DNA from: Patescibacteria group bacterium
GTDB taxonomy: Bacteria > Patescibacteriota > Patescibacteriia > JACRDY01
NCBI GenBank assembly: GCA_041650515.1
Contig: JBAZLA010000002.1
Location: forward strand, 167,659 to 231,658
Length of the DNA: 64,000 bases
Direction of reading: 5' to 3'
Of this stretch, positions 4,864-63,810 are shown one piece after another. A program made the position numbers and the translations under genes. The notes beneath the pieces are model-generated. The model did not search any database. It saw only the letters and a program-made list of their open reading frames with translations, and was not told the origin of the DNA. The first letter of the stretch is position 1. Each line of letters begins with the position of its first letter.

Positions 4864-4868
4864 ATTCT

Positions 4869-4966
4869 TAAAGTATAGAGTATGAAGTATAGAGTATAGA
4901 GGGAAATTGTGCCCCACGAACGTGGAATTAAGCCCTTTATACTTCATACTCTATACTGCATACTAA
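4869..4966. repeat. Heptad-periodic inverted-repeat hairpin element (GTATAGA/GTATGAA arrays)
   Basis: Left arm aagtatagagtatgaagtatagagtatagag. Right arm tatacttcatactctatactgcatacta. Central ~36 nt has its own small hairpin ccacgaacgtgg. Lies between the uvrB start and the terminator of the HD gene. Confidence 0.75.
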
Positions 4967-5162
4967 AATAGGGCACCGGTATTTAGAGCCATACCCGCGC
5001 TCGGACCAAAATTAGATTGTTCAGTCATTTTACTACAGCTATTTAACTTAGTCAAAACCATCTTTACAGCCTTGGTTAAATAGGCTAAAATTCTTTGTGC
5101 GGACCTGAAGTCGATACCCTTGCATTACTCAAAGTTAGGGGTTCATCCCTTCAGGCCGCTTA

Positions 5163-5190
5163 AAAAACCCGCTAGTTAGCGGATTTTTTA
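5163..5190. terminator. Bidirectional intrinsic terminator downstream of the HD-domain gene
   Basis: aaaaaa-cccgctagttagcggg(a)-tttttt. Confidence 0.6.
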
Positions 5191-5198
5191 GTCTAAAT

Positions 5199-11078: not shown

Positions 11079-11114
11079 ACATGCTATGTACTGCGTACTA
11101 AGTACTAACATACA
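11079..11114. repeat. Single-arm GTACTNN heptad array fused to the dprA stop codon
   Basis: On the coding strand the dprA 3' end reads ...ATG TAT GTT AGT ACT TAG TACGCAG TACATAG. TAG plus the (TACNNAG) heptads is the same motif that follows the ppsA, O-antigen-ligase and FG-GAP-protein stops. Confidence 0.6.
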
Positions 11115-14280: not shown

Positions 14281-14354
14281 TATTTGTTATTTGATATTTA
14301 TTATTTGATTATCTGTCTCAACCTTCCAAATAACAAATATCAAATAGCTAATAT
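14281..14354. promoter_or_regulatory. Heptad-periodic palindrome (TATTTGN x4 / CAAATAN x3) filling the parA-parB intergenic gap; operator-like
   Basis: tatttgttatttgatatttattatttga ... caaataacaaatatcaaatag. The arms are reverse-complementary. The same core (ATATTTGTT..AACAAATGGCAAATATC(AAATATC)x3) recurs upstream of ppsA at 61281-61345. Confidence 0.55.
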
Positions 14355-15116
14355 TCACTCCGTCGCTAAAATTTCTCGCGCTAATCTTTCGTAGGCTCGC
14401 GCCCCTTTAGAAAACGGCCGATAATGCAATATTGACTGGCCATAGGATGGCGCCTCGGCTAACTGCACCGTCCGCGGAATAATCGACCGAAAAATCCGAT
14501 TAGGAAAATAACGATATAACTGCTCCATCACCTCGGTCGATAGTTTGTTACGACGATCATACATCGTCAGCACCGCGCCCAGAACTTTCAAATCAGGCTT
14601 CAGATTATCCCGAACTAAATTAATCGTATTGAGTAACTGGCCCAAACCTTCCAAGGCGTAGTATTCGGCCTGCACCGGGATTAACACTTCTTGGCCGGCC
14701 GTCAAACTATTAATAGTAATTAAACCTAGAGAAGGCGGACAATCAATCAGAATATAATCATACCCACCATGGCCTTCGAGCAAAGCCTGATGTAACTTAT
14801 ACTCCCGTTCGTTTTCGTTAACTAATTCAATACCCGCGCCAGCCAAAGAGATAGTCGCCGGTGCCACCTTTAGACCAACGTGTTTAGTCGGTATAGTCAC
14901 CTGGCTCAATCGATGTTGACCAGTCAGCACTTCATAAATACCCTTGCTCAAACCTTGATGATCAATCCCCAGACCCGAAGTAGCGTTAGCTTGCGGGTCC
15001 ATATCAACTAATAAAACGTTCTGGCCAGCTTGGGCTAAATAAGCAGCTAGATTAACAGCCGTGGTGGTTTTACCCACCCCGCCTTTTTGGTTAACAATCG
15101 AAATAATGCGTGCCAT
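14355..15116 (-). CDS. parA: Chromosome partitioning ATPase ParA/Soj
   Basis: 253 aa. Deviant Walker A motif NQKGGVGKTTTAVNLAAYLA. Confidence 0.9.
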   Translation of the reverse strand: MARIISIVNQKGGVGKTTTAVNLAAYLAQAGQNVLLVDMDPQANATSGLGIDHQGLSKGIYEVLTGQHRLSQVTIPTKHVGLKVAPATISLAGAGIELVNENEREYKLHQALLEGHGGYDYILIDCPPSLGLITINSLTAGQEVLIPVQAEYYALEGLGQLLNTINLVRDNLKPDLKVLGAVLTMYDRRNKLSTEVMEQLYRYFPNRIFRSIIPRTVQLAEAPSYGQSILHYRPFSKGARAYERLAREILATE

Positions 15117-30828: not shown

Positions 30829-32697
30829 CTAAAAATCAACCACTTTACCACCCTGATTACTAGCTCGCTTATCACTATACAAATCAGTCGTAACTGTCCC
30901 AACATACTTTTCAATAATTCGACCGGTGATTTTATCTTTGCCAGTAATCTTAATATCTTGAATAAGCGGCGCCAGTCTGCCGATCTGATCGACTCGAGGG
31001 GTCAAGATAACAGCAAAACCAGCTTGCGGCGCGATACTCAAATCACCGGCAAATTTGGCCACTTCCCCCGGTTGCCAGCTAATCTCGCGCGTAACCACAT
31101 CAAAGGCTTGGCTAGCGCCCTGACCAACTGATTCCTTGGCTAACCAAGTTACATTATTAGGCAAAGTACCAGACACTCGAATATCAGTGACGTCGTTGTA
31201 AGAATTTAAAATTTTACCCATGATCCAGTACTTAGTTTCGACACCAACTACTGGCGGCAACGGACCAATGCCTAGCTGTTCGCCCTCCAAAGTATAATAA
31301 CGAGCTAGAACAACCAGCTCTAAATTAGTAGTCATAATATTATTAATCGGAGATAACTCGGCGTCAAAAGCGGTTTTTTGGCCTTGGAACTCCAAAGTGT
31401 AATTAACTTTAGGCACTAAAGTTAAATAGGCCGGCGACTCCGAACCAATAGTTTTGGTCTGAGTTTTTATTTTAAATTTCACTTCACCACCTTGACCCGG
31501 CTCCAACCGAGCTAAATCGGGAAAATTATCTGGGTTGAGGATCAAGGTTTTACCCGTCAAACTAATCGACTGCTCGGTGCTAAAAGTGCTGACGTTATAC
31601 AATGGGTCAGATAAATCTAAAGTAATATTAACATTTTCAATCGTCTGGTTTTCCTGATTCGAATATTTAATCAAATATTCAACCTCTTCACCAGGTAATG
31701 GCGAATAATCAGCTAGACCATTGACCAGGGCCGCCACTAAAAACTTGGGGTAGAAGATATTAGTTGATAAAACAGCTTGATTAGCCAAAAGCGGTTGCTC
31801 TTGGTGATTACAAAAGACTTGGAAGGTAGTTTTAACTTTAACCGGCGACTCAGCCTTATCCGAATTAATTTTTCCCCGGACTTTGATCGCTTTAGTCTCG
31901 CCAGCTTCTAACGTAGCTAGCGACCAGGCGCCACTAATTACCTGGGTGTCAGAATTAATCAGCGTGAAGTCACTAGACCATTGTGGTATCAGCTTAATAT
32001 TATTCAATGGTTGAGAATAATTGTTTTGGATAACCAGATAAAAATCAAACGGGCTATTACTAGCGACCACCAACGGCGCCTCAACTTTTAGATCCAAAAC
32101 TGAACCTTCAACTTGGTAATTAGCCTGAGCGGTTCTTTCTTCAAACCAATTCATATCGCGGCCCGATACGGCCTGCTGATAATAATCCAGGCGAGCGATG
32201 ACTTTTTGCTTTGTTTGATATGGCGCCCAAACCTCGCCGGTTAACTCGAGCTGACCACCGGTTTTGGGCGGTAAATCGCCAATTAATAAAATATGCTTCT
32301 CTGGATCATAACGCTCGTCATTGGCTTTGATAAACACAAAATCAGCTGGCAAATTCATAACTATCCTAGCGGCCGTCAACTCCTGACTGCGACTAGAATT
32401 ATGGTAATAAACCGTATAAATCGTCTTGGCACCACTAAGCACTGGCTGACTGACACTAATATCTAGCTTAACTTGCAACGAGACCACCCACTTAGTAAAA
32501 ATAAAAGAAATAAACACATTAATCAGAATCAAACTAACAACCGCTAGACCAAGGATTAAATCCGCAATCAAATGCTTACGGTTATACTTATAACGAACTC
32601 GATAACGCCTACCCAGCCGCTCAACCGTAAAATTAAAAGGACCAATGACGAGCTGACGAATAATTTTTTTGTGGATATCCATATAATTGTGGTACAC
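30829..32697 (-). CDS. Membrane-anchored hypothetical protein (possible surface/adhesin-like beta-rich protein)
   Basis: 622 aa. The tracked start is GTG-encoded, and an internal ATG (MDIHKK) is plausible. TM helix LILGLAVVSLILINVFISFIF. No recognisable catalytic motif. Terminator at 30771-30803. Confidence 0.5.
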   Translation of the reverse strand: MYHNYMDIHKKIIRQLVIGPFNFTVERLGRRYRVRYKYNRKHLIADLILGLAVVSLILINVFISFIFTKWVVSLQVKLDISVSQPVLSGAKTIYTVYYHNSSRSQELTAARIVMNLPADFVFIKANDERYDPEKHILLIGDLPPKTGGQLELTGEVWAPYQTKQKVIARLDYYQQAVSGRDMNWFEERTAQANYQVEGSVLDLKVEAPLVVASNSPFDFYLVIQNNYSQPLNNIKLIPQWSSDFTLINSDTQVISGAWSLATLEAGETKAIKVRGKINSDKAESPVKVKTTFQVFCNHQEQPLLANQAVLSTNIFYPKFLVAALVNGLADYSPLPGEEVEYLIKYSNQENQTIENVNITLDLSDPLYNVSTFSTEQSISLTGKTLILNPDNFPDLARLEPGQGGEVKFKIKTQTKTIGSESPAYLTLVPKVNYTLEFQGQKTAFDAELSPINNIMTTNLELVVLARYYTLEGEQLGIGPLPPVVGVETKYWIMGKILNSYNDVTDIRVSGTLPNNVTWLAKESVGQGASQAFDVVTREISWQPGEVAKFAGDLSIAPQAGFAVILTPRVDQIGRLAPLIQDIKITGKDKITGRIIEKYVGTVTTDLYSDKRASNQGGKVVDF

Positions 32698-32781
32698 AGT
32701 ACTCAGTACATAGTACCTAGGAAGCCGCTAGTCTAGCGCTAATTAACTTCCTAAAGTACTGGGTACTATGTACTGGGTACT
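32692..32781. repeat. Heptad-periodic inverted-repeat hairpin element (GTACTNN arrays)
   Basis: Left arm gtacacagtactcagtacatagtacc. Right arm agtactgggtactatgtactgggtact. The arms are reverse-complementary. The inner loop taggaag...cttccta is itself palindromic. The element fills the whole gap between the stop of one minus-strand gene and the start of the next. Confidence 0.8.
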
Positions 32782-32783
32782 TT

Positions 32784-34793
32784 TTAAAATACACTCAAAC
32801 TGGTGGTTAAAATTTCTTTTTGGTTATCACCATTAATATCATTAACCATTACTTCGATCCCATCACGGTTACCGACGTCGAAAGCCAAAAAGGTGTTACC
32901 AAGCTGTTTACCTCGAGAATCATAAACTTTAACCTCGGGCTTACCACCATAGCCAGGTGCCGCTACAATCTCGGCTGCCCCGTCGCCATTAATATCCCCC
33001 ACCGCGACATTAACCCCGCCACGAAAATTAGCATCAAAAGCAAACCAGCCGGCCGATAGTAGTTTACCATCTTTATTAAAAATCCGAATCTGTGGCCCGC
33101 CGCCAACGCCAGCACCGGCGATAATCTCGCTGGTGCCATCGCCATTAAGATCGCCCACCGCGACATTAACCCCGCCACGGTAGTCAGAACCATAAGCGAA
33201 AAAGCCCGGATTAATCAATCTACCCTGAGCATTAAAAACTCGAATCTGCGGCCCGCCGCCTTTTTCTGTGCCAGTAATAATCTCAATCGTACCATCGCCA
33301 TTAAGATCGCCAAATGACAAATTAATCCCCTTATTATATTTCTCGCCATAAGGATAAAAAGTAGTTTCTAACGTGCCAGCCGAGTTATAAATAGCCACCG
33401 AGCGATCACCGGCGATCAAAGTCTCCAGTGAACCGTCAACATCAATATCGGTAGTCAGAATTTGGCTACTGCCGGGATATTGAGCTTTATAGGTAAAAAA
33501 CCCACCCCGCTGCCGCTGACCGGTATTATCAAAAATACGCACAAACGACCCGTTAACAAAAGTAGAGCCAATGATCTCGGCCAATGGCTTAAGCAGTAAA
33601 ATGCCATCATTAGAATTTAGCCTTAAATAATTGATAATCGAGCCATCGTTGGTCAATGGATCTTGGGTACCTTTAATTTTTTCCAGCTCTTCACGACCCA
33701 AGTTGACTGCCTGACGGTCGTTAGTTGAATTGACAAACACAACACCTTTCTCAAAATCCCGACGCCAAACGCCGCTACTAATTGTCGTACTATTATTATG
33801 TAAGACATCCTGCGGTCCAGAAGTTGGTTGGCCCAAAGCAACATCATACTCGTCAAACCACCAAGTTTGGCCATGGCTAGTATCACCAAAATCAAAACTA
33901 TACAGACCATTACCTAATAAAGTGCTAGTTAGACCAAAACGCATCTTCTGATAATCAGCCTGGTTACCGGTATTAGCGGTATTAGCATTAACAATATGCA
34001 AAATTGTGCCAGAATAAGCCGACGTCTTGAGATAGTTACTTTGATCATTCGACCAACTATACGGAAAATTTTCAAAAACAACGCCGTTAAGCCGGTTGCC
34101 AAAACAAGTTGTACCGTTACCAATAATTATTTTGTCTTTCCCAATCAGGTTGCGAGTCTGATCAATAATTACCGCCTCACCGTTGCGCCAGGCTGGATCC
34201 GCCACGCTAGCCGTATCCTGACTACAGTTATTGTCCAAATCATAATTACTAATAAAGTAGCTAATATTATCCCAAGTATTATCCAATAAAACACCGTCCC
34301 AAAGACCACTGCTCATGATTTTGGTATTGATAAATTTAGGCAAAAAAGTATTCCAGCGGTCACCGTTAACCAAAGGACAATAGTCGCTGATATTTAATAG
34401 CCAACTACCTGACCACCAGCTGATTTTGTTTCCTGCTGCGTCTTTGAGATACCAAGCTACCGGGATACTATCCGCTAATTGACGCGAGAGCAAATAACTC
34501 TCACTGGTCAAATTAACCTCTTTGATTTCCTGACTAGCTAAATAAGCTAAAATTTTTATTTGCGGATTTAATTGGCGCAGACGGCGAATCTTATCCGGAT
34601 TGCGCACCTGTTGATCCATATCCAAAACGACTAAATCCCATTTGGCTAAATTGGTAATATCCTGATCACTTAATTGCCAACTATAAAAAAGATTAGCCAA
34701 TTTGGGGTACTCCTCCATCTGGCCAAAATTTAGTGGATATAAAAAAGAGGTTAGAATTAAAATAGCAATAATTGTGGGGAAAATACGTTGCAT
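32784..34793 (-). CDS. Secreted protein with N-terminal glycoside-hydrolase-like TIM-barrel-type domain (tentative) and C-terminal FG-GAP/VCBS repeats
   Basis: 669 aa. Signal peptide MQRIFPTIIAILILTSFLYPLNFG. Repeated GDLNGDGTIEIITG, GDLNGDGTSEIIAGAG and GDINGDGAAEIVAAPG motifs are FG-GAP-like. The N-terminal domain call is low confidence. Confidence 0.6.
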   Translation of the reverse strand: MQRIFPTIIAILILTSFLYPLNFGQMEEYPKLANLFYSWQLSDQDITNLAKWDLVVLDMDQQVRNPDKIRRLRQLNPQIKILAYLASQEIKEVNLTSESYLLSRQLADSIPVAWYLKDAAGNKISWWSGSWLLNISDYCPLVNGDRWNTFLPKFINTKIMSSGLWDGVLLDNTWDNISYFISNYDLDNNCSQDTASVADPAWRNGEAVIIDQTRNLIGKDKIIIGNGTTCFGNRLNGVVFENFPYSWSNDQSNYLKTSAYSGTILHIVNANTANTGNQADYQKMRFGLTSTLLGNGLYSFDFGDTSHGQTWWFDEYDVALGQPTSGPQDVLHNNSTTISSGVWRRDFEKGVVFVNSTNDRQAVNLGREELEKIKGTQDPLTNDGSIINYLRLNSNDGILLLKPLAEIIGSTFVNGSFVRIFDNTGQRQRGGFFTYKAQYPGSSQILTTDIDVDGSLETLIAGDRSVAIYNSAGTLETTFYPYGEKYNKGINLSFGDLNGDGTIEIITGTEKGGGPQIRVFNAQGRLINPGFFAYGSDYRGGVNVAVGDLNGDGTSEIIAGAGVGGGPQIRIFNKDGKLLSAGWFAFDANFRGGVNVAVGDINGDGAAEIVAAPGYGGKPEVKVYDSRGKQLGNTFLAFDVGNRDGIEVMVNDINGDNQKEILTTSLSVF

Positions 34794-37429: not shown

Positions 37430-37434
37430 GAGCT

Positions 37435-37559
37435 AGTGCTTAATACATAGTACATAATACAATAGTAACAAATAACTAACTTCCCCGGTCAACTGCAACC
37501 TTGGAATTCACCGAATAATACTGGAATTAGTAGCTGCGTACTAGGTACTGTGTACTAGG
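37435..37559. repeat. Heptad-periodic inverted-repeat hairpin element (GTACTNN arrays)
   Basis: Left arm atacatagtacataatac. Right arm gcgtactaggtactgtgtactagg. The right arm contains the TAG stop (complement at 37555-37557) of the O-antigen-ligase gene. Confidence 0.65.
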
Positions 37560-38916
37560 TGCTATTTTTAACAAACTTCGTCGCGGCTAAAGCAACGCCT
37601 AACGGAAACCACATTTTGGAAACAAAATAAGACGTCTGAAAAAGCTGAAAAACCATAGCGCCAATAGCGACCACTAAACAAATCAAAACCACGCTCGACC
37701 ATGGGTCCTGTCTAGTCAAGGCAAATCGGTAAGCCCAGACAATCCGCCACAAAACAAAAACCAATAATAAAGTAAAGGTAAACAAACCCAGAACGCCCGA
37801 CTCAGCCAATAGTTTTTGGATCACTCCGTGCGACTCTTGAGTATCGCCAAACTCCAGCATAAAAATCGGATCACTGGCTACCAGCTCAGTAAAACTACCT
37901 GCGCCATTACCTAATAATGGATGTTTGTGCCACGACTGGATGGCAATCGTTGTCAGATACAATCGATGCCAATTAGAGCTCTGGGCAATATAGCTGGTCG
38001 AAAACAAATACATATAAATCAAAGCCGGCGAGAGACAAATAGCGATCAAGACTGTGTAAACCACAATCTTTTGCCACTGGCGCCAGTACTGGATTAGAAA
38101 TAAGATTAATAACTCCACAATCAAGGCAATCCAGCCTGTCCGCGAAAAAGTCGCTAAATTAATCAAAACCATTAATAAGACACCCAAAAATAACCAACGT
38201 TTTCTGTTGCCTTCTCTAGCCTGCCAAATCAAAATTACGCTAAACGGAATAGCGGCGATCAGCACCTCGGCAATCAGATTATGATTCCAGCCTAATGGCC
38301 GGATACCAAAGAGCGCTAACGGCACCGCCCGCCGAAAAAAGCCCTCAGCGCCGACACCAGCTATCAACGACCAGAGACCCATGATCGCCACACTAATACC
38401 CAAGAAATAAAAAATCTTAAAAATGTTTTTGAGGATTTTTTTGTCCTCAATCAGATTGTAAGGCAAGATAACAAACATCAGATAAAAAAATGACAACGGC
38501 CGCAGAATATATTTGATAGTCAAAAGATTGTCAGCCGCATTAATCAATGACAAACTAGAAGCAATAATAAACAAGACAAAATAAAATAAACCCGGGAAAT
38601 TGGCCCAAGATAGCTTTTGTTCACCTTTGAAATGGCGCACTAACGCCTTGATCGCCCAAGCGACAAAAACTACCATTGCTAAGACATCAACATAGGGCAC
38701 GTTTAAGTCTTTATAAATTATTTCCAGATAAGTCAGCGGGTACAAAAAAGTAATCAAATAAAGGCCCAGGGTGGTATAACGGTAAAAAAGGCCAATTGCC
38801 AAAACCAGAATTAGGACAAATAAAATATAGCTGGGTTTTATTATCACAGCTAAAACCGCCAAAATTACCAAAAAAATGGCTAGCAAATAAATTTGGGCCT
38901 GATTTTCTTTGTTCAT
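37555..38916 (-). CDS. O-antigen ligase / Wzy-like polytopic membrane protein
   Basis: 453 aa, roughly 10-12 predicted TM helices, and a large periplasmic loop with H/R-containing motif typical of the O-antigen ligase (Wzy_C) family. Sits in the glycosyltransferase cluster. Confidence 0.62.
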   Translation of the reverse strand: MNKENQAQIYLLAIFLVILAVLAVIIKPSYILFVLILVLAIGLFYRYTTLGLYLITFLYPLTYLEIIYKDLNVPYVDVLAMVVFVAWAIKALVRHFKGEQKLSWANFPGLFYFVLFIIASSLSLINAADNLLTIKYILRPLSFFYLMFVILPYNLIEDKKILKNIFKIFYFLGISVAIMGLWSLIAGVGAEGFFRRAVPLALFGIRPLGWNHNLIAEVLIAAIPFSVILIWQAREGNRKRWLFLGVLLMVLINLATFSRTGWIALIVELLILFLIQYWRQWQKIVVYTVLIAICLSPALIYMYLFSTSYIAQSSNWHRLYLTTIAIQSWHKHPLLGNGAGSFTELVASDPIFMLEFGDTQESHGVIQKLLAESGVLGLFTFTLLLVFVLWRIVWAYRFALTRQDPWSSVVLICLVVAIGAMVFQLFQTSYFVSKMWFPLGVALAATKFVKNST

Positions 38917-39007: not shown

Positions 39008-39505
39008 TCATCCACGATTATTCCGATCCTTACCCCAATTTTTGGGGTTATTTTTAATATATTGGTAAATTTTTTGATATTCCCATTGGTTACGGATAAC
39101 CCGGTCATGGAACGACCGTTGCCATTGAAAATGGAAATCACGGGAACGAATTTGTTTGGTCACAACATTTTTAAATGAATTAACAATTTTCGATAACAAA
39201 CCATATCGCATTGTAGGGACAGGGCATTGCCCTGTCCCTACGGGATCATCAATCATAATTATTCCGTGTAAATGGTTGGGCATAACGACAAAAATATCAA
39301 TTTGAATATTTAAATAATGTTGGGGTATTTGTTGCCAACATTTTTTGGCGATTTTACCATATTCATTCAATACCATTTTCCCGTTGATAACATCGCCAAA
39401 AACCATTTCCTTATTGTGGGTGCAAATGGTAATGAAATATTGGCCAATTTGGGAATAATCATATCCTAACCAACGGTTTAATTTGCGTTCACGGTATTCA
39501 ACCAT
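39008..39505 (-). CDS. tnpA: IS200/IS605-family Y1 (HUH) transposase, REP-associated tyrosine transposase-like
   Basis: 165 aa. HUH motif MPNHLHGII. C-terminal catalytic Tyr region QWQRSFHDRVIRNQWEYQKIYQYIKNNPKNW matches the Y1_Tnp/RAYT pattern (WQ..YHD..IR....Y.YI..NP). No tnpB partner. A perfect 29-nt palindrome lies inside the CDS at 39213-39241. Confidence 0.8.
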   Translation of the reverse strand: MVEYRERKLNRWLGYDYSQIGQYFITICTHNKEMVFGDVINGKMVLNEYGKIAKKCWQQIPQHYLNIQIDIFVVMPNHLHGIIMIDDPVGTGQCPVPTMRYGLLSKIVNSFKNVVTKQIRSRDFHFQWQRSFHDRVIRNQWEYQKIYQYIKNNPKNWGKDRNNRG

Positions 39506-39555: not shown

Positions 39556-39583
39556 ATAAAAAAACCCGTACGGAGTACGGGAC
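39556..39583 (-). terminator. Terminator downstream of the island Cys-rich lipoprotein gene; also upstream flank of the transposase gene
   Basis: aaaaaaa-cccgtacggagtacggg. The palindrome contains GTAC twice. Confidence 0.6.
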
Positions 39584-39639
39584 CTGCTCCACTGAGGAAG
39601 ATCAGGGTTTGGTAATGGTTCCCTCCTGGGGAAATGGGG

Positions 39640-41280
39640 TCAGGGCGCGTAGTTGGCCCGGACCATGTACTCCTCGGTCCACGCCGGGTTGGAGTAGTAG
39701 TCCTCCAGCCAAGCGTCGGAACATTCATCAAGCGGGAGCACGGTGGGCGGCGTGGTGCAGGACGACGCGTAGTACTCACCCAGACCGGCGGGGCTGGCCT
39801 TCCAACGGAGTTGGCTCCACTGTCCCAAATGGACGACGGTGAAGACTCCATTGATGTCCAACCCGCAGTCTTGGCAGTTGCAGATGAGCTGCGCCGCGAA
39901 GGGGTGCTCGTCGGTGCCGTTGCAGCGGTCACCCGGCGGGGTGCCCGACTCGGTCACCGCCACCAGGAATTCCACCGTCGCGCTGGCCGCGCCGCACGTG
40001 TCGATGAAGTACAGCCGCAGAACGTGAAAGCCGACGGTCAAAGAAGCGGTGCCGTAGTGGTACTCGTAGGGTCCTTCGCCCTGCGACCACGAGGAACAGA
40101 CAACCGTCGGGGGTAACAACGACGGCACATAGGCGCTGCCGTCCACGGCGAACTGCACCCGGCCGCGCTCGGTGACGCTGCTCAGGTTGCAGTCGGCGTC
40201 CAGGTAGTTGACCACAATGTCCAGGTTCGCGCCCTGGGCAAAAATGATCGGGTCGCTGGCCGGCACGCCGTCGACCAAAACCTGGTTGAGCCCGATGATC
40301 GGCGCCGTGTTGTCCTGGCACTCGGTGCTGATGGTGGTACATGAGTCGTTGCCCTCGTCGCACTGTTGCGTCAAGGGGTTGCACTCGTCCGGGCCGACGT
40401 TGACGCACTGGCCAACCTGGCACTCGTCCAAACCGTCGCACCAGTAGCCGTTGTTGCAGGCGCTGCCGTTGATCTTGTCGGTCCAGCCCGTGGGGTTGAG
40501 CCCGGGCTGGCACTCTTCGCACTGATTCAGGGGGTTGTCGTCCCCGGTCTGGTAGACGTACCCGCTGATCGTGCACTCGGTGGGCACAGGGATCAGATCG
40601 CATTCGTCGTTGCTTTCGTCACACACCTCGGTGATCGGATCGCACTCGTCGGGACCCACGTTGGCGCAGACGCCGGCCTGGCACTCGTCCAAACCGTCGC
40701 ACCAGTAACCGTTGTCACAAACCGCACCGTTGGGACGGACGGTCCAGCCCGTGGGGTTGAGCCCGGGCTGACATTCTTCGCAGGGATTCGCGGGGTTGAT
40801 GGCGCCGCTCTCGTAGTGATAGCCGTTGATGATGCATTCGTTGTCGTCGTCATCGTCGTCATCGTCACCCAACGGATCGCATTCATCCGCGGACTCGTTG
40901 CAAACCTCCGTGAGGGGGCTGCACTCGTCCGGCCCGACGTTCACGCAGTCGCCGGCCTGGCACTCGTCCGGGCCGTCACACCAATAGCCGTTGCTGCAAA
41001 CCGCACCGTTGGGACGGACGGTCCAGCCCGTGGAGTCGAGCCCGGGCTGACATTCTTCACAGGAATTCGCGGGGTTGATGGCGCCGCTCTCGTAGTGATA
41101 GCCGTTGATGATGCATTCGTTGTCGTCGTCATCATCCAGGGAGATGTCATCATCGGTGTCGCCACCGTTGTCGTCGTCATCGCCGCCGCCGTACTCGCAG
41201 GCGACAACGAAGCCGACAATCAGGAAAAAGAACAAGGCGACCAACAGTCCGTTGGTCAGGGGGGTTCTCGTCGTCTTCAT
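39640..41280 (-). CDS. Secreted Cys-rich lipoprotein with three tandem ~90-aa Cys-rich modules and poly-Asp linkers (GC-rich island)
   Basis: The ORF is tracked to 41307, but the RBS 'ggagg' lies 7 nt before the ATG at 41280 (MKTTRTPLTNGLLVALFFFLIVGFVVAC = signal plus lipobox). Repeats: NECIINGYHYESGAINPAN.CEECQPGL..TGWTVRPNGAVC.NGYWCDG.DECQAG.C.NVGPDEC. Poly-D runs DDDDNGGDTDDD and DDDDDDDD. The region is much more GC-rich than the rest of the window. Confidence 0.6.
   Translation of the reverse strand: MKTTRTPLTNGLLVALFFFLIVGFVVACEYGGGDDDDNGGDTDDDISLDDDDDNECIINGYHYESGAINPANSCEECQPGLDSTGWTVRPNGAVCSNGYWCDGPDECQAGDCVNVGPDECSPLTEVCNESADECDPLGDDDDDDDDNECIINGYHYESGAINPANPCEECQPGLNPTGWTVRPNGAVCDNGYWCDGLDECQAGVCANVGPDECDPITEVCDESNDECDLIPVPTECTISGYVYQTGDDNPLNQCEECQPGLNPTGWTDKINGSACNNGYWCDGLDECQVGQCVNVGPDECNPLTQQCDEGNDSCTTISTECQDNTAPIIGLNQVLVDGVPASDPIIFAQGANLDIVVNYLDADCNLSSVTERGRVQFAVDGSAYVPSLLPPTVVCSSWSQGEGPYEYHYGTASLTVGFHVLRLYFIDTCGAASATVEFLVAVTESGTPPGDRCNGTDEHPFAAQLICNCQDCGLDINGVFTVVHLGQWSQLRWKASPAGLGEYYASSCTTPPTVLPLDECSDAWLEDYYSNPAWTEEYMVRANYAP
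40300..41130. repeat. Tandem ~280-bp DNA repeats (3 copies; the two at higher coordinates are near-identical) inside the Cys-rich lipoprotein gene
   Basis: Blocks such as cgcggggttgatggcgccgctctcgtagtgatagccgttgatgatgcattcgttgtcgtcgtcatc occur at 40791 and 41071. accgttgggacggacggtccagcccgtgg occurs at 40726 and 41006. The period is 280 bp. Confidence 0.8.
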
Positions 41281-41337
41281 TTCGAAACCTCCGTTTGCAG
41301 AAGACATTACTCACTTCGTTTCTGTCGCTTCGGTGTT

Positions 41338-42888
41338 TTACCAGGAAATTACGATTCGTCCCGCGCCACCGAAATAGCGGGATTCATCGGTTACCAGGGG
41401 GTTATCAAAGTCGGGCGACCATTGTCGCCAGCCAAAGGCCGGTCCGAGCATCAGCCGAATCGGGTGTTGCCCGAAGAGCCAGTACTCATAACCGATACCC
41501 AGGCTGACAAATTGGTCAAGACCATACGGTCCGCCCTGACTGCCCAGACTCTCCGAGATGGCGTTGCCGCTCACCTCAAAGGCCAGATAGTGGGACGGGG
41601 TAATGGCCCAGGCCGCGCCAAGATGGCCGCTCCCAATGAGGGAGTTGTGATAGCCATACCCGACGTAGCCACCGACCCGAAGCACGTTGGGTTGTCCGGC
41701 GATGGTGAAATCGCCCTCAACCTCGAGAACGCCGAAACCGCTTGCGTGTTGCGCATTCGCGGTAACGACACCTCCAGCACCAACGTGCAGAAATTTCGGC
41801 CAAGACACAGTAACCGGAACAGGAACAAGAACAGGAACTTTTCCCGAGGGACGTTGCGTCCGCTCGGCTGCGAGTCGCTGACCCGATTCTGCCGTGTTAA
41901 GGGCAGCTTGGGCCCGGGCTCGCAGATCCGCAAAGTCATCCCCGGTGTAGATCCGGAGGAAGGCTTGGCCTCGGTCTTGAACCTTGGCCCAGTCTTTTGA
42001 CTTTACTGCGGCTTCAATCTCTTCGACCTCCTCTTCCGCCAGTTGGCGGTTGACTTGCCCCACCATCTCAGGCAGGGTGCCCCTGGTGATCACCAGGGCG
42101 GTGACCGCCGTAGGCGGAGTGAGGTCAGGCGGGGTAGTGGTGGGTTCTTCTGTCTCAGACGGCAGATTAGGCTCAGCCTGCGCCAAGACCCTTTCCGACC
42201 ACCGAGACGTCTCTGGCTCTGGGGCGTTAGTCACCCGGTAGCGCTCACCTGGCGGCGGCGCCGACACGGTGTACTCCCGATAGCCCCCTTGGCCGTAGAC
42301 AAGTTGGAACTCATCATTAAGCCAGTGAACTGCCGGGGTTGTACTAACGTCCCAGATCTCCACCCAAACTTCTTCTTCCAGCACATCGCTGCCCAAGGTG
42401 AGCATAATGGCCTCACCCTTGTACGGATATTCGGTCCACTGACCGTCCACCAGTACGCGGGCAATGATCCGACCGTCACGTGGTGTCTCCTTAAACCGCA
42501 GCTCTAACCGGTCGGAATTGGGCGGCGGGGTAAAGGTTCTGATGCACGGGCCGGCATCAATCGGTATTTCCGGCCCGTCATATCCGGCAGATTGCACCCG
42601 GATGGCCTCAGCCACGCCCAAATACCCGTAGAGCGTGACCTCCGCGACTTCGGTTACCGGTTTAGCCAGGATATGATGCCAGACCTGGTACTTGTACGTA
42701 CCGGCCGTGACTGTCGCTTTCCAGGGATGGTTGCTGTCAAATGGATGGCTCTCGGGATCCCTATTTCCCGGTCGCCACAACCTCAGCTCATACACGCCGT
42801 CAGGGCAGATTGCGCTGGTGGCGCATTGAATCCCGATCACGGGCGGTTTGAGTTTCGGTGGTGAACCGCGAGCAACCGCTTCCTCCAC
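41338..42888 (-). CDS. Putative outer-membrane beta-barrel-like protein (GC-rich island); start uncertain
   Basis: 516 aa as tracked, but the start is actually GTG-encoded. An in-frame upstream extension encodes KTKGKFLIAVFLLLIFGSV (signal peptide) with an AGGAGG RBS near 42945, so the true start is probably non-canonical and upstream. The C-terminal ~180 aa are rich in alternating G/Y/aromatic beta-strand residues and end in ...GRIVISW (OMP-like C-terminus). Confidence 0.5.
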   Translation of the reverse strand: MEEAVARGSPPKLKPPVIGIQCATSAICPDGVYELRLWRPGNRDPESHPFDSNHPWKATVTAGTYKYQVWHHILAKPVTEVAEVTLYGYLGVAEAIRVQSAGYDGPEIPIDAGPCIRTFTPPPNSDRLELRFKETPRDGRIIARVLVDGQWTEYPYKGEAIMLTLGSDVLEEEVWVEIWDVSTTPAVHWLNDEFQLVYGQGGYREYTVSAPPPGERYRVTNAPEPETSRWSERVLAQAEPNLPSETEEPTTTPPDLTPPTAVTALVITRGTLPEMVGQVNRQLAEEEVEEIEAAVKSKDWAKVQDRGQAFLRIYTGDDFADLRARAQAALNTAESGQRLAAERTQRPSGKVPVLVPVPVTVSWPKFLHVGAGGVVTANAQHASGFGVLEVEGDFTIAGQPNVLRVGGYVGYGYHNSLIGSGHLGAAWAITPSHYLAFEVSGNAISESLGSQGGPYGLDQFVSLGIGYEYWLFGQHPIRLMLGPAFGWRQWSPDFDNPLVTDESRYFGGAGRIVISW

Positions 42889-42958
42889 TGACCCGAAGAT
42901 CAGCAGGAGGAAGACGGCTATCAGGAACTTTCCTTTGGTCTTCGTGACTTCCTCCTTT

Positions 42959-44014
42959 CTAGAAGCGGTAACCGACCCGGAACATCACCCCGTAGGGGAT
43001 GGTGACGCGCGTAACGTCTTCCTGGGCCGGGCTCTTGGACTCGAACTGGAGTCCGCAGTTGGGGCCAACACCCCAGATCAGCCGATCGTCGAAGTGACGG
43101 CCAACCAGGCCGGCGTTAAGGATCGGAAACCCCCAGCGATCGGTATGGTTGCCGTGCTCGACTTGGAACCACCGCGAGGTGATCCCAGCTTCGAAACCGG
43201 CCCAGCTCTCGCCGAAAATACGGTACCCGCCACCGACCTCGGTGTCGAGACCCGCATGTTGGTTGGGGCCCAACCCGCCGTGGAAGAAGAACTCGTGCCT
43301 TCCCCACAGCAGGTCAAACCCGCCTTCGGCGATGAAGTAGGAGTAATTGCCGTTGCTGTCCATGTAGGTTTGGTAACCCGCGTACAGCAGAGCGCTCACC
43401 CCGTCGCCGCCGCTCGCACCCGCAGCACCCGGTCTGGCGGTCGGCATGAAGATCCGCGAGATGATGCCTTGCGGGCTATCCCGGTTCTCCACCCGAACTT
43501 CTTCATCCGGATCAACCGGTTCGATCTCAACGTCCGCAATCCCGCGGCCACGCTCACCCGGAGCGCCAGCCGCACCGCTGGTCGGCGGTTTGCGAACATA
43601 AATCCGAACCACCCGGTTTTTGTTGCGGAAGTTCCCGTCGGCATCGCACAAAGTTTGTGCCTCGGGGAGACCAGCCTCAATCTCAACTCGCTTTACCTCA
43701 GTTGCCCGCAGGTGAGCGAGTTGGCCGTTGCCGGTGAAGCCGCTGGTTTCGCCGTGGTAATCGGCGTAACCAGTAAACTTCACTTCCCAGCCCGGGTAGT
43801 CGGACCTAATCTTGGCGGCGACCGCCTTCAGCTTATCCATCTGTGCCTGACGCACATTGGACGGAAAAGCTTCCGGCAATCGCCACTCGTTGATCGTAAA
43901 ATCGGCGGTGGCGTGGATCAGGATCCACCCATCGCCGGCCTCTGCCGTTTTGGCACTTGCCAGGATGGCGAGCGCCACGATGGACAATGCCACCGCCAAC
44001 AGGATTCTTCGCAC
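42959..44014 (-). CDS. OmpA/MotB-like peptidoglycan-binding domain protein with C-terminal beta-barrel-like region (GC-rich island)
   Basis: 351 aa. Signal peptide MRRILLAVALSIVALAILASAKTAEA. OmpA_C-like motif FTGYADYHGETSGFTGNGQLAHLRATEV...NRVVRIYV. The C-terminus ...MFRVGYRF ends in Phe like diderm outer-membrane proteins. Confidence 0.6.
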   Translation of the reverse strand: MRRILLAVALSIVALAILASAKTAEAGDGWILIHATADFTINEWRLPEAFPSNVRQAQMDKLKAVAAKIRSDYPGWEVKFTGYADYHGETSGFTGNGQLAHLRATEVKRVEIEAGLPEAQTLCDADGNFRNKNRVVRIYVRKPPTSGAAGAPGERGRGIADVEIEPVDPDEEVRVENRDSPQGIISRIFMPTARPGAAGASGGDGVSALLYAGYQTYMDSNGNYSYFIAEGGFDLLWGRHEFFFHGGLGPNQHAGLDTEVGGGYRIFGESWAGFEAGITSRWFQVEHGNHTDRWGFPILNAGLVGRHFDDRLIWGVGPNCGLQFESKSPAQEDVTRVTIPYGVMFRVGYRF

Positions 44015-44078
44015 AATTGCCTCCTTCCTACGTCTTTTGCGTAGGTATCAGAAAGGTTGAATCACCGTTTTAAGACTC

Positions 44079-51834: not shown

Positions 51835-51839
51835 TGATT

Positions 51840-51938
51840 AGTACACAGTGCAGAGTACTATAGTACACAGTAACTTATAACCCAGCGACGACAGATTTTA
51901 GATTTCTATGGACTATGTACTAGGTACTGTGTACTATT
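51840..51938. repeat. Heptad-periodic inverted-repeat hairpin element (AGTACNN/GTACTNN arrays)
   Basis: Left arm agtacacagtgcagagtactatagtacacagta. Right arm ctatgtactaggtactgtgtactat. Lies between the GC-rich islet terminator and smpB. Confidence 0.7.
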
Positions 51939-51950
51939 TCTTGGTATAAT

Positions 51951-52424
51951 ATGATTACTTCTATGCCCATTCTTGCTGACAATAAAAAAGCCCTTTTTGA
52001 CTACCAAGTCGTTAAAACTTGGGAAGCGGGTTTGATTTTGACTGGCCAGGAGGTCAAATCTGTTCGCAATAAACAGCTTAGCCTTAAAGAATCTTACGTG
52101 GTTATTAACTTAACCGCTAACCGGTCGCCTCAAGCTTATCTGCTCAACTGCCATATCTCGCCCTACAAAATGGCCGGCCACTTAACTGGCTATGATCCGA
52201 CTCGCACTCGCCGCCTCTTATTACACCAAAAAGAGATCAATTCGCTTTATGGCCAAGCGCAGCAAGCTGGCTTGACATTAATCCCCTTACGAGTGTATAC
52301 TAAGGGAACTAAAATTAAAGTTGAAATTGGCTTAGTTAAAGGAAAAAAACAGTTTGATAAGCGAACGGCCATCAAAAAACGTGAGGTCGACCGCGAACTC
52401 CGCCGTAAATTGAAAAATATCTAG
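51951..52424 (+). CDS. smpB: SsrA-binding protein SmpB
   Basis: 157 aa. DYQVVKTWEAGLILTGQEVKSVR and the C-terminal basic tail (KREVDRELRRKLK) match SmpB. tmRNA lies directly downstream. Confidence 0.9.
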   Translation: MITSMPILADNKKALFDYQVVKTWEAGLILTGQEVKSVRNKQLSLKESYVVINLTANRSPQAYLLNCHISPYKMAGHLTGYDPTRTRRLLLHQKEINSLYGQAQQAGLTLIPLRVYTKGTKIKVEIGLVKGKKQFDKRTAIKKREVDRELRRKLKNI

Positions 52425-58705: not shown

Positions 58706-58904
58706 GAGGCTTCGTAGATGGGAAAGAGATCCTTCGCTTCGCTCCTGACACATGGGTCAGGAGCTACACTCAGGATGACGAATTAAAAAATTCTCAATGA
58801 CAACAAAAAACGGCCCCCTCGGACCGTTATTTTGAAATCTTGCTTTTTTTCTTGTCCTTCGGCTCCGCTCAGGACAGGCTTTATTGCTTTTTCAATTCTA
58901 TAAA

Positions 58905-58927
58905 CTCTGTACTGTGTACTAAGTACT
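58905..58927. repeat. Single-arm GTACTNN heptad array fused to the ppsA stop codon
   Basis: Coding strand: ATG AAA TAG TACTTAG TACACAG TACAGAG. Nearly identical to the sequence after the dprA stop. Confidence 0.6.
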
Positions 58928-61277
58928 ATTTCATTTTACTCACGGCCTGCCAAGTTTTTAAAACTGAATCGGAAGTCAGCGATAACGAATCAATCCCGGC
59001 TTTGACTAAAAATTTAGCAAAGTCTGGAAAGTCCGATGGCGCTTGGCCGCAGATACCAATTTTGCGTTTGGCTCGATGGGCTTCTTTAATCACCTGCTTA
59101 ACCATTATTTTGACCGCTTCATTGCGTTCGTTACCAACCGTAGAGACCAAAGTGGAATCACGATCAAGACCCAAAACTAATTGGGTTAAATCATTAGAAC
59201 CAATTGAAAAGCCATCAAAAATCTTAGCAAACTCCTTAGCCAAAATAACATTAGACGGAATCTCGCACATCACATAGAGTTCTAAACCATGCTGACCGCG
59301 TCGCAGACCGTTCTGAGCCATGATTTTAACCACCTTTTGTCCTTCTTCTGGCGTCCGACAAAAAGGAATCATCACCGTCACATTAGTTAGACCCATCTCT
59401 TCGCGCACCTTTTTGATTGCCTGACATTCTAATTCAAAAGCCGGCTGGTAACTCTCACTGTAATAGCGCGACGCGCCCCGCCAGCCAATCATCGGATTTT
59501 CTTCTTTTGGTTCGTAGAGCTTGCCGCCGATCATCGTCGCGTATTCATTAGTTTTGAAATCCGAAGTCCGGACAATCACTGTTTTGGGGTAAAAACCAGC
59601 CGCCAGCCGGGCAATACCATGCGCTAGACGATCAACAAAATATTCCCGCTTATCTTCGTAACCAACGGTTAGTTTATCAATTTTATTTCTCAATCGCCGG
59701 TCTTTAATCTTCTTATAATTTAATAAAGCCAGAGGATGAACCTTAATATAATTGGAAAAAATAAACTCTAATCGAGCTAACCCCACCCCGTCATTAGGAA
59801 TCTGACAATCAGTAAAGGCCAGCTCTGGGTTGCCAAGATTCATCATAATCTTGATTCTGGGCCGACCCAGTTTTTTAAGATTAATCTTGCGTACTTTGAA
59901 TGGCAATAACCCTTGGTAAACATTTCCCCGCTCGCCCTCGGCGCAACTAACCGTTACTTGATCCCCATTTTTAAGTTTACGGGTAGCGTTTTTAGTGCCA
60001 ACAATACAAGGAATGCCCAGTTCGCGGGAAACAATCGCTGCGTGAGATGTCCGGCCACCTTGATCAGTGACAATCGCCGCGGCCACTTTCATCACCGGTT
60101 CCCAATCTGGGTCAGTAATGGTGGTCACCAAAACTTCGCCACGCTTAAAACGACTAATCTCTCTGACATTTTTGATTACTCGCACGCCACCTTGACCGAT
60201 CTTAGAGCCAATAGCCAAACCAGACAAAATCGCCTTGCCTTTATGAGTTAAATAGTATTCTTCAAAAATATTCTGGTCCCGGGTTGACTCCACTGTTTCC
60301 GGCCGCGCTTGAACGATATAAAGCTTTTTATTCAGACCATCCTTAGCCCATTCAATATCCATGGGCATCTTATAATGCTGCTCAATAATTTGCCCCCACT
60401 TAGCGAGTTGATCGATCTCTCGATTATTCAAAACAAAACTCTGCCGTTGCTTTTTGGGCGTATTGATATTAATTGTCGCACCAGTCAAACCAAATTTATT
60501 TGCATAGATTAATGTTTTCTCCTTACTGCCTAGCTCTTTAGAAATAATCGCGTTGGTTTTTTTAAAATATAAATACTCATCAGGGACTACTCGGCCCTTA
60601 ACGACATTTTCCCCCAGCCCCCAGGCCGCATCAATCATCACCACATCGCGAAACCCCGAATCAGTATCCAGAGTAAACATTACGCCCGACGAGGCTAAAT
60701 CCGAACGCACCATTTTTTGCACGCCAACGGAAAGAGCCACCTGATTATGCAAAAAACCCTTATCCACTCGATAAGAAATCGCTCGATCAGTAAATAGTGA
60801 AGCAAAACAACGCTTGCAAGCTAGTAGAATATTCTCTTTACCTACGACGTTTAAAAAAGACTCTTGCTGACCAGCAAAAGAAGCGCCGGGCAGATCTTCA
60901 GCGGTTGCTGACGACCGCACGGCCACACTGCCACCGCCAAGCTTTTTATAATCAGCCAAAATTTGTTTTTCCAGATCGGCTGGCCAAGCACCAGCTAAAA
61001 TCAGTTGTCGGATCCGATTGCCGCGTCGGCTGAGATCTTTAACTTGCCTAATATTTAAACCAGCCAAAATTTGTTTGATTGGTTTTTCCAAAGAATTAAA
61101 GCGTAAGAAATAACGATAAGCCGCGGCCGTAATGGCAAAACCATCAGGAATACTAATACCCCGTTTAGTCAGCTTATTATACATTTCACCTAACGAAGCG
61201 TTCTTGCCGCCGGCTAAAGCTAGATCACCAATACCAATTTCCGAAAACCACAAGATTAATTGGTCTCTTTTAAACAT
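58926..61277 (-). CDS. ppsA: Phosphoenolpyruvate synthase (pyruvate, water dikinase)
   Basis: The ORF is tracked to 61313 with a probable start at the internal Met (MFKRDQLILWFSE) at 61277. PEP-utilising enzyme His domain GGRTSHAAIVSRELGIPCIVG. ATP-grasp N-terminal and PEP-binding TIM-barrel C-terminal (ICGQAPSD). Confidence 0.85.
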   Translation of the reverse strand: MFKRDQLILWFSEIGIGDLALAGGKNASLGEMYNKLTKRGISIPDGFAITAAAYRYFLRFNSLEKPIKQILAGLNIRQVKDLSRRGNRIRQLILAGAWPADLEKQILADYKKLGGGSVAVRSSATAEDLPGASFAGQQESFLNVVGKENILLACKRCFASLFTDRAISYRVDKGFLHNQVALSVGVQKMVRSDLASSGVMFTLDTDSGFRDVVMIDAAWGLGENVVKGRVVPDEYLYFKKTNAIISKELGSKEKTLIYANKFGLTGATININTPKKQRQSFVLNNREIDQLAKWGQIIEQHYKMPMDIEWAKDGLNKKLYIVQARPETVESTRDQNIFEEYYLTHKGKAILSGLAIGSKIGQGGVRVIKNVREISRFKRGEVLVTTITDPDWEPVMKVAAAIVTDQGGRTSHAAIVSRELGIPCIVGTKNATRKLKNGDQVTVSCAEGERGNVYQGLLPFKVRKINLKKLGRPRIKIMMNLGNPELAFTDCQIPNDGVGLARLEFIFSNYIKVHPLALLNYKKIKDRRLRNKIDKLTVGYEDKREYFVDRLAHGIARLAAGFYPKTVIVRTSDFKTNEYATMIGGKLYEPKEENPMIGWRGASRYYSESYQPAFELECQAIKKVREEMGLTNVTVMIPFCRTPEEGQKVVKIMAQNGLRRGQHGLELYVMCEIPSNVILAKEFAKIFDGFSIGSNDLTQLVLGLDRDSTLVSTVGNERNEAVKIMVKQVIKEAHRAKRKIGICGQAPSDFPDFAKFLVKAGIDSLSLTSDSVLKTWQAVSKMK

Positions 61278-61280: not shown

Positions 61281-61345
61281 TATTTGTTCCAAATAACAAA
61301 TGGCAAATATCAAATATCAAATATCAAATATCAAATATCAGCAAT
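61281..61345. promoter_or_regulatory. CAAATAT heptad tandem array (x4) plus inverted ATATTTGTT half-site upstream of ppsA, downstream of pyk
   Basis: tatttgttccaaataacaaatggcaaatatcaaatatcaaatatcaaatatcagc. Related to the parAB intergenic palindrome. Confidence 0.55.
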
Positions 61346-63704: not shown

Positions 63705-63810
63705 GTACTAACATAAGTATGCGGTATGCAGTATGCGGTATACAGGGACTAAACTCCACCATTCGTGTAGATTAACCCCCGCATACTGCATACTAATCCC
63801 TGCATACTAC
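63705..63810. repeat. Heptad-periodic inverted-repeat hairpin element (GTATGCN arrays)
   Basis: Left arm agtatgcggtatgcagtatgcggtatac. Right arm cgcatactgcatactaatccctgcatactac. Upstream of the 156-aa membrane protein gene. Confidence 0.75.

Follow-up and report, generated by a model that had tools for sequence, protein, structure and literature searches.

Intergenic hairpins of inverted tandem heptamers in a Patescibacteria genome: an instance of the convergent heptamer repeat class with probable ties to intervening-sequence cassettes

In prokaryotes, no intergenic tandem repeat is commoner than the heptamer repeat, for whose function there is 'no clear clue' (PMC6344855). Xanthomonas genomes contain 70-75 convergent heptamer pairs each, with the unit GGGAATC and the capacity to form stem-loops (PMC4692102), and Geobacter metallireducens carries MTYCTGA 'class 3' heptanucleotide sites that loop between strands (PMC2700814). 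Among the TAACTGA repeats of Beggiatoaceae, Cyanobacteria, and Bacteroidetes, one of 170 sets is inverted (PMC4679880). Heptamers also occur in the 23S rRNA IVS (intervening sequence) of Coxiella, where RNase III cleaves a 28-bp terminal stem at the first of two to three strain-variable GACAGAT heptamers that sit just upstream of the S23p open reading frame (ORF) (PMC4990558). ORFs of the family PF05635 (23S-rRNA intervening-sequence protein) are likewise present in rRNA insertions of bacteria of the Candidate Phyla Radiation (CPR) (PMC11270868). Here, we describe hairpins made of inverted tandem heptamers that lie between protein-coding genes of a Patescibacteria group bacterium, in a stretch of 64,000 nt of contig JBAZLA010000002.1 (hereafter, the window; all positions are those of the whole window). 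They represent a new CPR instance of the known convergent-heptamer class, and the evidence ties them to IVS-type cassettes. The reading that we favor, and for which we find the balance to be about even, is that the hairpins are convergent (inverted-pair) representatives of the intergenic tandem heptamer repeats, a widespread class, and are ORF-less IVS-type stem-loops serving as RNA processing or stability sites.

The initial annotation of the window had pointed to five gaps filled with tandem 7-mers and their reverse-complement arrays. Inverted 7-mer arrays were indeed found in all five, the copy at 37436-37562 being degenerate. Their excess over what composition predicts was also borne out: a search with the pattern GTAYNNNGTAYNNNGTAY (up to one mismatch) gave 32 matches in the window versus 0.90 +/- 1.11 expected from shuffled sequence, a count reached by no shuffle. 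Strict period-7 arrays numbered eight versus 0.3 expected, and Tandem Repeats Finder also reported the arrays. In total, the window holds nine arrays, that is, seven hairpins and two single arms (Table 1). Both the 7-nt period and the GTA(C/T) core had been thought constant. The period is indeed general in the window, whereas the core is not universal, since the hairpins at 14281-14354 and 61284-61342 are built of an unrelated, CAAATAT-type unit. The observation that the unit differs between loci stands, with AGTATAG, GTACNNN, GTATGCR, and CAAATAT all found within 64 kb; a short AGTA core is common to most arms.

The hairpins measure roughly 60-125 nt and consist of a 5' arm of three to five tandem heptads (AGTATAG, AGTACNN, or GTATGCR in those noted at the outset), a spacer or loop of about 19-65 nt, often with a GGG...CCC clamp and a small palindrome, and a reverse-complement 3' arm. 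Stems comprise about 18-21 uninterrupted pairs at 4871 and 14281 and about 25-30 pairs with mismatches at 32692 and 63716; a stem of at least 20 bp formed by terminal inverted repeats, which characterizes IVS-type cassettes, is a property of the window hairpins. RNA folding against shuffled sequences yielded z-scores of -4 to -6 for five hairpins (4866-4970, -5.4; 32688-32786, -5.9; 51838-51942, -3.95; 63703-63812, -5.1; hairpin F, -5.8), and only -1.55 for 37430-37566, where 12 of 200 shuffles folded at least equally well. No Rfam family matched the hairpins at its gathering score, and a search at a permissive E-value, made for 4860-5260 only, returned sub-threshold chance matches, such as a plant miRNA precursor model placed on the hairpin.

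Each of the nine arrays either is intergenic or runs into a gene end by no more than 12 nt, in a window of which a conservative gene set covers a fraction of 0.86 (about 14% being non-coding), and about one-quarter of the larger intergenic gaps carry such an element. The genome is very compact, and without the elements the spacers that hold them would be very short. The distance from the end of the 3' arm to the next start codon is 6-13 nt in six of the seven hairpins and 54 nt at 63716. The 5' arm lies at or over the upstream stop codon at 32692, 37436, 14281, and 61284, and the same applies to both single arms. A span from one gene's stop to the next gene's start, as described earlier, was seen at these four hairpins, and not at 4871 and 63716, where an intrinsic-terminator-like stem with a T-run intervenes between the upstream gene and the heptad hairpin; ahead of the hairpin at 51841, there is only a weak GGCC stem with a T run. 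The window contains no rRNA gene, and every heptad copy in it is located between protein-coding genes and not in an rRNA helix. The hairpins sit within apparent operons. A Shine-Dalgarno-like tetramer at -20 to -4 precedes only about 10 of 38 window genes, and the leaders are A/T-rich (…aaat ATG). Low use of Shine-Dalgarno sequences is typical of Bacteroidota and Cyanobacteria too, and these two groups were prominent among the heptamer-repeat matches from other genomes described below.

Table 1. Heptad arrays of the window and the terminator-like stems beside them.
Feature	Position	Strand	Arms, loop, and other sequence features	Placement
Hairpin A	4871..4964	.	5' arm (AGTATAG/AGTATGA)x4 at ~4872-4901; 3' arm of CTATACT type at ~4935-4964; loop palindrome CCACGAACGTGG	end 7 nt short of uvrB ATG (4863, minus strand)
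Conserved terminator-like stem, not heptad	4966..5012	minus	GCGCGGGTAT...ATACCGGTGCC + T-run	between upstream region and hairpin A
Single-arm GTACT array	11081..11108	.	GTACTGC GTACTAA GTACTAA	overlaps stop of gene 11098-12192 (minus strand)
Hairpin F	14281..14354	.	(WTATTTG)x4, 19-nt spacer, (CAAATAW)x3	from stop of 14355-15116 (minus strand) to 0-12 nt off next gene's start
Hairpin B (focal)	32692..32781	.	5' arm GTACACA GTACTCA GTACATA GTAC; 3' arm GTACTGG GTACTAT GTACTGG GTACT; inner stem AGGAAG/CTTCCT; loop palindrome CGCTAGtCTAGCG; dG -41.6	begins 2 nt past stop of 32784-34793 (minus strand); end 9 nt before ATG at 32682
Hairpin C, decayed	37436..37562	.	degenerate 5' arm ATACATA GTACATA ATACAAT; intact 3' arm GTACTAG GTACTGT GTACTAG GTGCT	overlaps stop of 37555-38916 (minus strand); end 6 nt before ATG at 37429
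Hairpin D	51841..51937	.	AGTACAC AGTGCAG AGTACTAT AGTACAC ... GGACTAT GTACTAG GTACTGT GTACTA	T-run ahead; end 13 nt before smpB ATG (51951, plus strand)
Single-arm GTACT array	58902..58928	.		overlaps stop codon of PEP (phosphoenolpyruvate) synthase gene (58926-61277, minus strand)
Hairpin/array G	61284..61342	.	one ATATTTG facing seven: CAAATAA CAAATGG (CAAATAT)x5	overlaps pyruvate kinase stop; end ~6 nt before PEP synthase ATG
Hairpin E	63716..63806	.	(GTATGCG/GTATGCA)x4, then (YGCATAC)x3-4; CACGAATGGTGG in the loop (minus strand); of one family with hairpin A	end 54 nt before ATG at 63661
Canonical terminator beside hairpin E	~63811-63852	minus

The finding of strong stems right behind stop codons, some of them with a T5 run on one strand (32781-32785; 37566-37570), is what would be expected if the hairpins were terminators at gene ends, either bidirectional and independent of a U-tract, as had been proposed, or Rho-assisting. 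However, T-runs are missing or on the wrong strand for most hairpins, a canonical terminator already adjoins those at 4871 and 63716, and the arms enclose whole genes in relatives. Furthermore, the hairpins lie inside apparent operons and 6-13 nt before the next start. A terminator scan of 30-40 kb of the window, a range containing only the hairpins at 32692 and 37436, called neither of them terminator-like, and the combination of short G+C-rich stem, small loop, and immediate 3' U-tract that marks an intrinsic terminator was not found in the hairpins, whose loops measure 19-65 nt and whose T-runs are inconsistent. The proposal was thus abandoned, and we consider a terminator function extremely improbable.

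The behavior of the hairpins in related genomes was followed at the uvrB locus. The UvrB protein of the window is identical to one named 'Patescibacteria group bacterium', and its next relatives, at 76-82%, belong to Patescibacteria and Candidatus Falkowbacteria. We compared 22-kb loci around uvrB from four related genomes (L127, L128, L129, and L131), UvrB identity across the five loci, with the window included, being 76-100%. Upstream of uvrB, all five genomes possess a conserved terminator-like motif followed by a heptad hairpin, with 3-11 nt between its end and the ATG; the four relatives have orthologous hairpins at the same position, and the unit is different in each genome (AGTATAG; AGTATTT/ACATACT; AGTATTC-AGGGAAC; AGTAGCT; ATTGCCA). 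The arms of hairpins A and E, one subfamily, are the only ones of the window that can be aligned. Six hairpins were aligned over arms and loop, namely window A, window E (minus strand), a pair from L128, and a single hairpin from each of L127 and L129. In this alignment, 87.7% of cells were paired, and both-sided changes were present in 14 of 34 pairs. The covariation score equaled 0.371 versus 0.163 for shuffles, none of 500 reaching 0.371, and did not exceed 0.143 in a control in which partners were slid by 1-3 columns, so that the two arms change together. The loop motif CRCGAAYGGTGG is common to hairpins A and E and to L127 and L128; it was not enriched in the window (15 matches with up to two mismatches versus 11 expected) and was retained as a family marker only.

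The junction between uvrB and uvrA was found in several states. It is a bare 7-nt spacer in the window, while L128 has an empty hairpin there (dG -64 kcal/mol), which nearly duplicates, down to the loop, that genome's own hairpin upstream of uvrB. In L127, (AGTATAG)x5 and (CTATACT)x4 surround a 122-aa PF05635 gene plus an A/T-rich stretch, and L129-L131 show a terminator and a tRNA-like sequence, the latter read by eye. Thus, hairpins of this type have been gained, lost, and copied. Near-identical copies, one of the marks of MITEs (miniature inverted-repeat transposable elements), are represented by the pair in L128 and by A and E in the window; no target duplication was evident at the uvrB-uvrA junction, where the flanks are too diverged to align. 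The gap of focal hairpin B was compared in four metagenome relatives of its upstream gene (39-56% identity). One of these has a different array, AGTGCAA, straight after the stop, with an inverted partner about 720 nt away, and in the other three no heptad array follows the stop; the focal hairpin is therefore not conserved.

Three side observations concern these loci. First, the motif ahead of the uvrB hairpin, TTTGGGCCTAAGCAGGGGTA(N7-8)ATACCGCTGCC with a T-run, is kept in five genomes despite differing upstream genes (window 4966-5012, minus strand; L127 9826-9868; L128 9293-9340; L129 ~9860-9900; L131 ~9865-9905). It is conserved as nucleotides and not as a reading frame, no Rfam family matches it at 4966-5012, and its possible identities include a terminator and a small RNA's 3' end. 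Second, L128 9340-10000 has the order arm, PF05635 gene (reverse), arm, loop, complementary arm, and uvrB ATG, in which the 3' arm is able to pair either with the near arm, giving a local hairpin, or with the far one, enclosing the gene; judging by this layout, an alternative-pairing switch is possible. Third, in L125, which carries a relative of the gene upstream of hairpin B, inverted AGTGCAA/TTGCACT arrays (836-867 and 1584-1616, about 720 nt apart) lie on either side of an ORF, its product starting with MPITASTIIKTRFGDF; PF05635 may therefore not be the only gene that heptad arms bracket. As to hairpin A itself, a promoter reading, with TATACT of the 3' arm as the -10 box of a leaderless mRNA, was rejected, as it fits this hairpin and no other units.

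The gain, loss, and copying of hairpins bear on the main rival of the RNA-processing reading, namely that the hairpins are selfish or neutral DNA. They would then be dispersed elements of a MITE-like kind, or products of slippage that arose on small palindromes, that are tolerated in short spacers with no benefit to the cell, their arm complementarity being kept at the DNA level by cruciform- or hairpin-templated repair and gene conversion. Consistent with this are the near-identical copies, loop included, within L128, the presence or absence of elements at orthologous junctions, the decayed and single-arm copies (37436, 11081, and 58902), and folding that shows no strand asymmetry; the Coxiella IVS, too, has been called selfish and has no detectable phenotype (PMC4990558). 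However, a hairpin occupies exactly the same pre-start spot at uvrB in five genomes while its sequence has turned over, uniform ends that lie 6-13 nt short of start codons would be hard to put down to chance if the elements were mere junk, and neither an association with a transposase nor, at the uvrB-uvrA junction with its diverged flanks, target-site duplications were found. On these grounds, we regard a purely selfish or neutral origin as doubtful, though a serious contender.

Further evidence concerns the gene enclosed by the arms in L127. Pfam identified PF05635 in relatives with E-values of 1e-30 to 1e-38, and this gene, which encodes a four-helix bundle, was found in the cassette loop not only in close relatives but also in four or more further phyla (heptamer-armed cassettes in L127, L128, L027, L068, L110, L007, and plasmids). 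The distribution of the arrays was surveyed in a cross-phylum scan that represented each species by a single genome and looked for pairs of GTAC-heptad triplets separated by 12-42 nt. The scan revealed at least 120 loci with paired triplets, rough random expectation being well below one match; since it is biased by its search pattern and the number of loci is a lower bound, no frequencies can be derived from it. Among the matches listed were Bacteroidota, Acidobacteriota, Chloroflexota, Planctomycetota, Gemmatimonadota, Actinomycetota, Verrucomicrobiota, Nitrospirota, Cyanobacteriota, Elusimicrobiota, Patescibacteria, and others. At least 35 of the matches listed were inverted pairs with spacers of 13-67 nt, the remainder being direct or long single arrays, and the polarity AGTAC...GTACT prevailed over the reverse by 15:5 of the 35 inverted pairs, a mild bias only. 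In viral contigs, 19 loci had paired GTAC heptads. Within 150 nt of the arrays listed, 87 small ORFs were present, and PF05635 was the sole recurrent Pfam family among them; it stood beside the arrays four times, in four different lineages and always between inverted arrays. An Elusimicrobia metagenome-assembled genome (L119 5736-5982) has two near-identical hairpins around a tRNA-like sequence, and their units (GTACAGA/GTACATA ... GTACTCT/GTACTGT) closely resemble the window's.

To eliminate ascertainment bias, a sample of PF05635 genes was picked without regard to repeats, by tblastn with the L127 protein on plasmids of cultured bacteria, and 13 matches were read. In 11-12 of the 13, short tandem-repeat arms abut the ATG and the stop of the gene; the arms consist mostly of 7-mers, with a few 8- or 16-mers, and are mostly inverted, two being direct. 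Several of these genes lie inside cas operons, a setting that has been described before for the family (PMC3936711): in the cyanobacterial plasmids L155, L161, and L164, armed PF05635 genes stand between cas6 and cas4 or between cmr2 and cmr3. A Pseudanabaena PF05635 gene is located inside a direct array of more than 25 AAGCTAA/AAGCCAA units. A general tie of PF05635 genes to heptamer arms was not found stated in the literature that we searched.

The recurrence of PF05635 between heptad arms admits a broader conjecture, which we hold to be improbable, that heptamer arrays and PF05635 genes together make up one unrecognized IVS-type selfish system that is pan-bacterial. In it, the arrays would serve as element ends or landing pads, recognized by PF05635 or made through it; rRNA helices and short gene spacers would be colonized, and most copies would persist as ORF-less hairpins. 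If true, this would account for the surplus of period-7 repeats that has long been noted between prokaryotic genes and would provide the first function of PF05635 outside diversity-generating retroelements.

The adjacency of PF05635 genes to arrays also fits another explanation, in which each heptad is the unit bound by a protein with affinity for single-stranded or duplex nucleic acid, such as a cold-shock protein, an S1-type protein, or a PF05635 pentamer, that tunes translation initiation or transcription of the downstream gene. The arrays abut start codons in a genome without Shine-Dalgarno sequences, and a role of this kind has been proposed for similarly placed TAACTGA repeats of Beggiatoaceae (PMC4679880) and heptamers of Nostoc (bioRxiv 10.1101/2022.06.06.494920). 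Single-arm and direct arrays exist as well, so the hairpin is not obligatory. Nevertheless, units vary by locus within one genome (AGTATAG, GTACTGG, GTATGCG, and CAAATAT), a diversity that no single sequence-specific binder can read and that makes sequence-specific protein binding unlikely. The strong covariation from arm to arm is, in turn, explained by pairing and not by binding, and we consider the binding-site explanation as a whole quite improbable.

Among the roles suggested for the hairpins in the initial annotation, inter-cistronic RNA processing or stability is thus the one best supported, by the long duplex stems, the ends near start codons, the covariation of arms, and the arms enclosing PF05635. 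According to the RNA-processing reading, the hairpins would be the ORF-less form of a stem-loop cassette and would be co-transcribed with the neighboring genes. The double-stranded stem of about 20-30 pairs might then offer RNase III-type enzymes a place to cut or bind, and so act in RNA processing or stability; through cleavage, adjoining cistrons would be parted, and the downstream gene, which lacks a Shine-Dalgarno sequence, would have its 6-13-nt leader released. The arms probably evolve fast through slippage of 7-nt units, and their complementarity would be restored in concert. A similar mode of action is known from Correia/NEMIS MITEs of Neisseria and the RNase III sites between the early genes of phage T7, which are co-transcribed long hairpins cut by RNase III with consequences for the stability or translation of flanking cistrons. 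The terminal inverted repeats of Correia elements are fixed, and their target duplications are TA; neither heptad periodicity nor an association with PF05635 is known for Correia/NEMIS elements or T7 sites.

The periodicity, pairing, intergenic placement, gain and loss of elements, covariation, and PF05635 association are observations; transcription through the hairpins, their cleavage by RNase III, and a benefit to the cell are inferred, the mode of action by analogy. Several points weigh against the RNA-processing reading. The window has no PF05635 gene; as relatives with the same arm family do, the window copies would be ORF-less derivatives. Elsewhere, PF05635 genes were found in direct, not inverted, arrays (L155 and L158) or with no array (L162), and the two CAAATAT-unit hairpins of the window cannot be aligned with the AGTAY family. 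Fold energies gave a mixed picture, with no consistent asymmetry between sense and antisense, and RNA is therefore not favored over DNA as the level of pairing. The compensatory changes could equally well stem from mechanical coupling of the arms (templated repair or cruciform gene conversion) and not from selection on structure. Finally, no RNase III gene was present in the 64 kb of the window and the four 22-kb relatives, which is uninformative at that scope.

Compared with the 23S IVS carrying S23p (Coxiella and Leptospira), the hairpins share terminal inverted repeats, a stem of more than 20 bp, variable tandem heptamers, a PF05635 gene in the loop in relatives and other phyla, the occurrence of ORF-containing and ORF-less versions, and a sporadic, insertion-like distribution. 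In contrast to the IVS, the window elements lie between protein-coding genes and contain no ORF, and RNase III cleavage, demonstrated for the IVS, is for them a presumed property. With the Xanthomonas and Geobacter pairs they have in common intergenic tandem 7-mers of three to five or more units that are convergent and a few tens of nt apart, a copy number that varies among related genomes with the single or paired type kept, and no link to insertion sequences or to a function. Unlike in those genomes, where one unit dominates, at least four units occur within the 64 kb of the window, and the arms are A/T-rich AGTAY sequences with no G-quadruplex potential in a reduced CPR host genome. Cyanobacterial STRR (short tandemly repeated repetitive) sequences, TAACTGA repeats, and Nostoc heptamers resemble the window arrays in their period of 7, intergenic location near starts, little Shine-Dalgarno use, and patchy phylogeny, but they are mostly direct arrays, whereas inverted pairs predominate in the window (seven hairpins versus two single arms).

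What is new here is that arms of the same family bracket PF05635, that the uvrB-uvrA junction is polymorphic, that plasmid PF05635 genes have arms, and that arm changes are compensatory. Gain and loss at the junction, compensatory arms, and a partner gene (PF05635/S23p) give three handles on the heptamer puzzle. If the link to PF05635 is true, the puzzle becomes a testable hypothesis of RNA processing or of a selfish element, with a bearing on the punctuation of polycistronic mRNAs in organisms whose initiation is not led by Shine-Dalgarno sequences.

A Y1 transposase of the window had also been put forward as the enzyme acting on the hairpins, which would make them REP-like (repetitive extragenic palindromic) substrates or REPINs produced and moved by the RAYT-like product of the 165-aa ORF at 39008-39505. 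As in REP/REPIN systems (PMC3116915), there are many copies of intergenic two-arm hairpins of comparable size, with two inverted arms of about 25-30 nt around a spacer, and a RAYT-like gene in the window; most arms share the AGTA core, and weak Y1_Tnp genes were seen near uvrA in L128 and L129. An HUH-like motif, NHLHGII, is visible in the ORF. However, its match to RAYT NF047646 (54.3 bits) is below the curated cut-off of 80, and it has no Pfam match at 1e-3. Inspection by eye, blastn against the window, and a heptad pattern search of the gene's flanks detected no heptads within 1 kb, no hairpin of the family, and no sequence repeated elsewhere in the window. REP arms, moreover, are near-identical imperfect palindromes that flank the RAYT gene, whereas the heptad arms are no imperfect palindromes, vary in sequence between copies, and leave the RAYT-like gene unflanked. 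The 'GTAC hairpin' beside the transposase, noted at the outset for carrying the GTAC tetranucleotide of the heptads, turned out to be the intrinsic terminator of a neighboring gene: cccgtacggagtacggg (39565-39581) reads on the minus strand as CCCGTAC-tcc-GTACGGG, a 7-bp G+C-rich stem, followed by T7, lies just past the stop of gene 39640-41307, and was the top terminator-like site in the 30-40 kb scan. Among the matches listed from the cross-phylum scan, none of the 87 small ORFs beside heptad arrays (120 genomes) encodes a Y1 transposase. The RAYT-like gene also borders a foreign-looking island of 60% GC, and we judge its involvement in the making or movement of the hairpins very improbable.

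The island itself (39600-44050, about 4.4 kb) has a GC content of 58-63% versus 43% for the genome and looks like foreign DNA or a chimeric join. It contains three large minus-strand ORFs (555, 516, and 351 aa) with Cys/Asp-rich repeats and no Pfam match except a weak one to OmpA, and a clean intrinsic terminator is situated at its end. A 200-kb metagenome contig (ENA ERZ27247363) and a second assembly, Logan SRR8542065, match the window except for a 1-nt deletion at 49719, where the window lacks one A found in both public same-strain assemblies (L001 and L002); as a result, the gene of an AI-2E transporter, whose product has 349 aa in the public contigs, is broken up in the window as ORFs 49014-49667 and 49697-50062. 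Hairpins D and E are identical in the same-strain assemblies L001, L002, and L159, with no microvariation in heptad copy number. Downstream of hairpin D, the next gene after smpB (51951-52424) is that of a one-piece tmRNA at 52544-52941 (143.9 bits), and a tRNA gene lies at 56014-56086.

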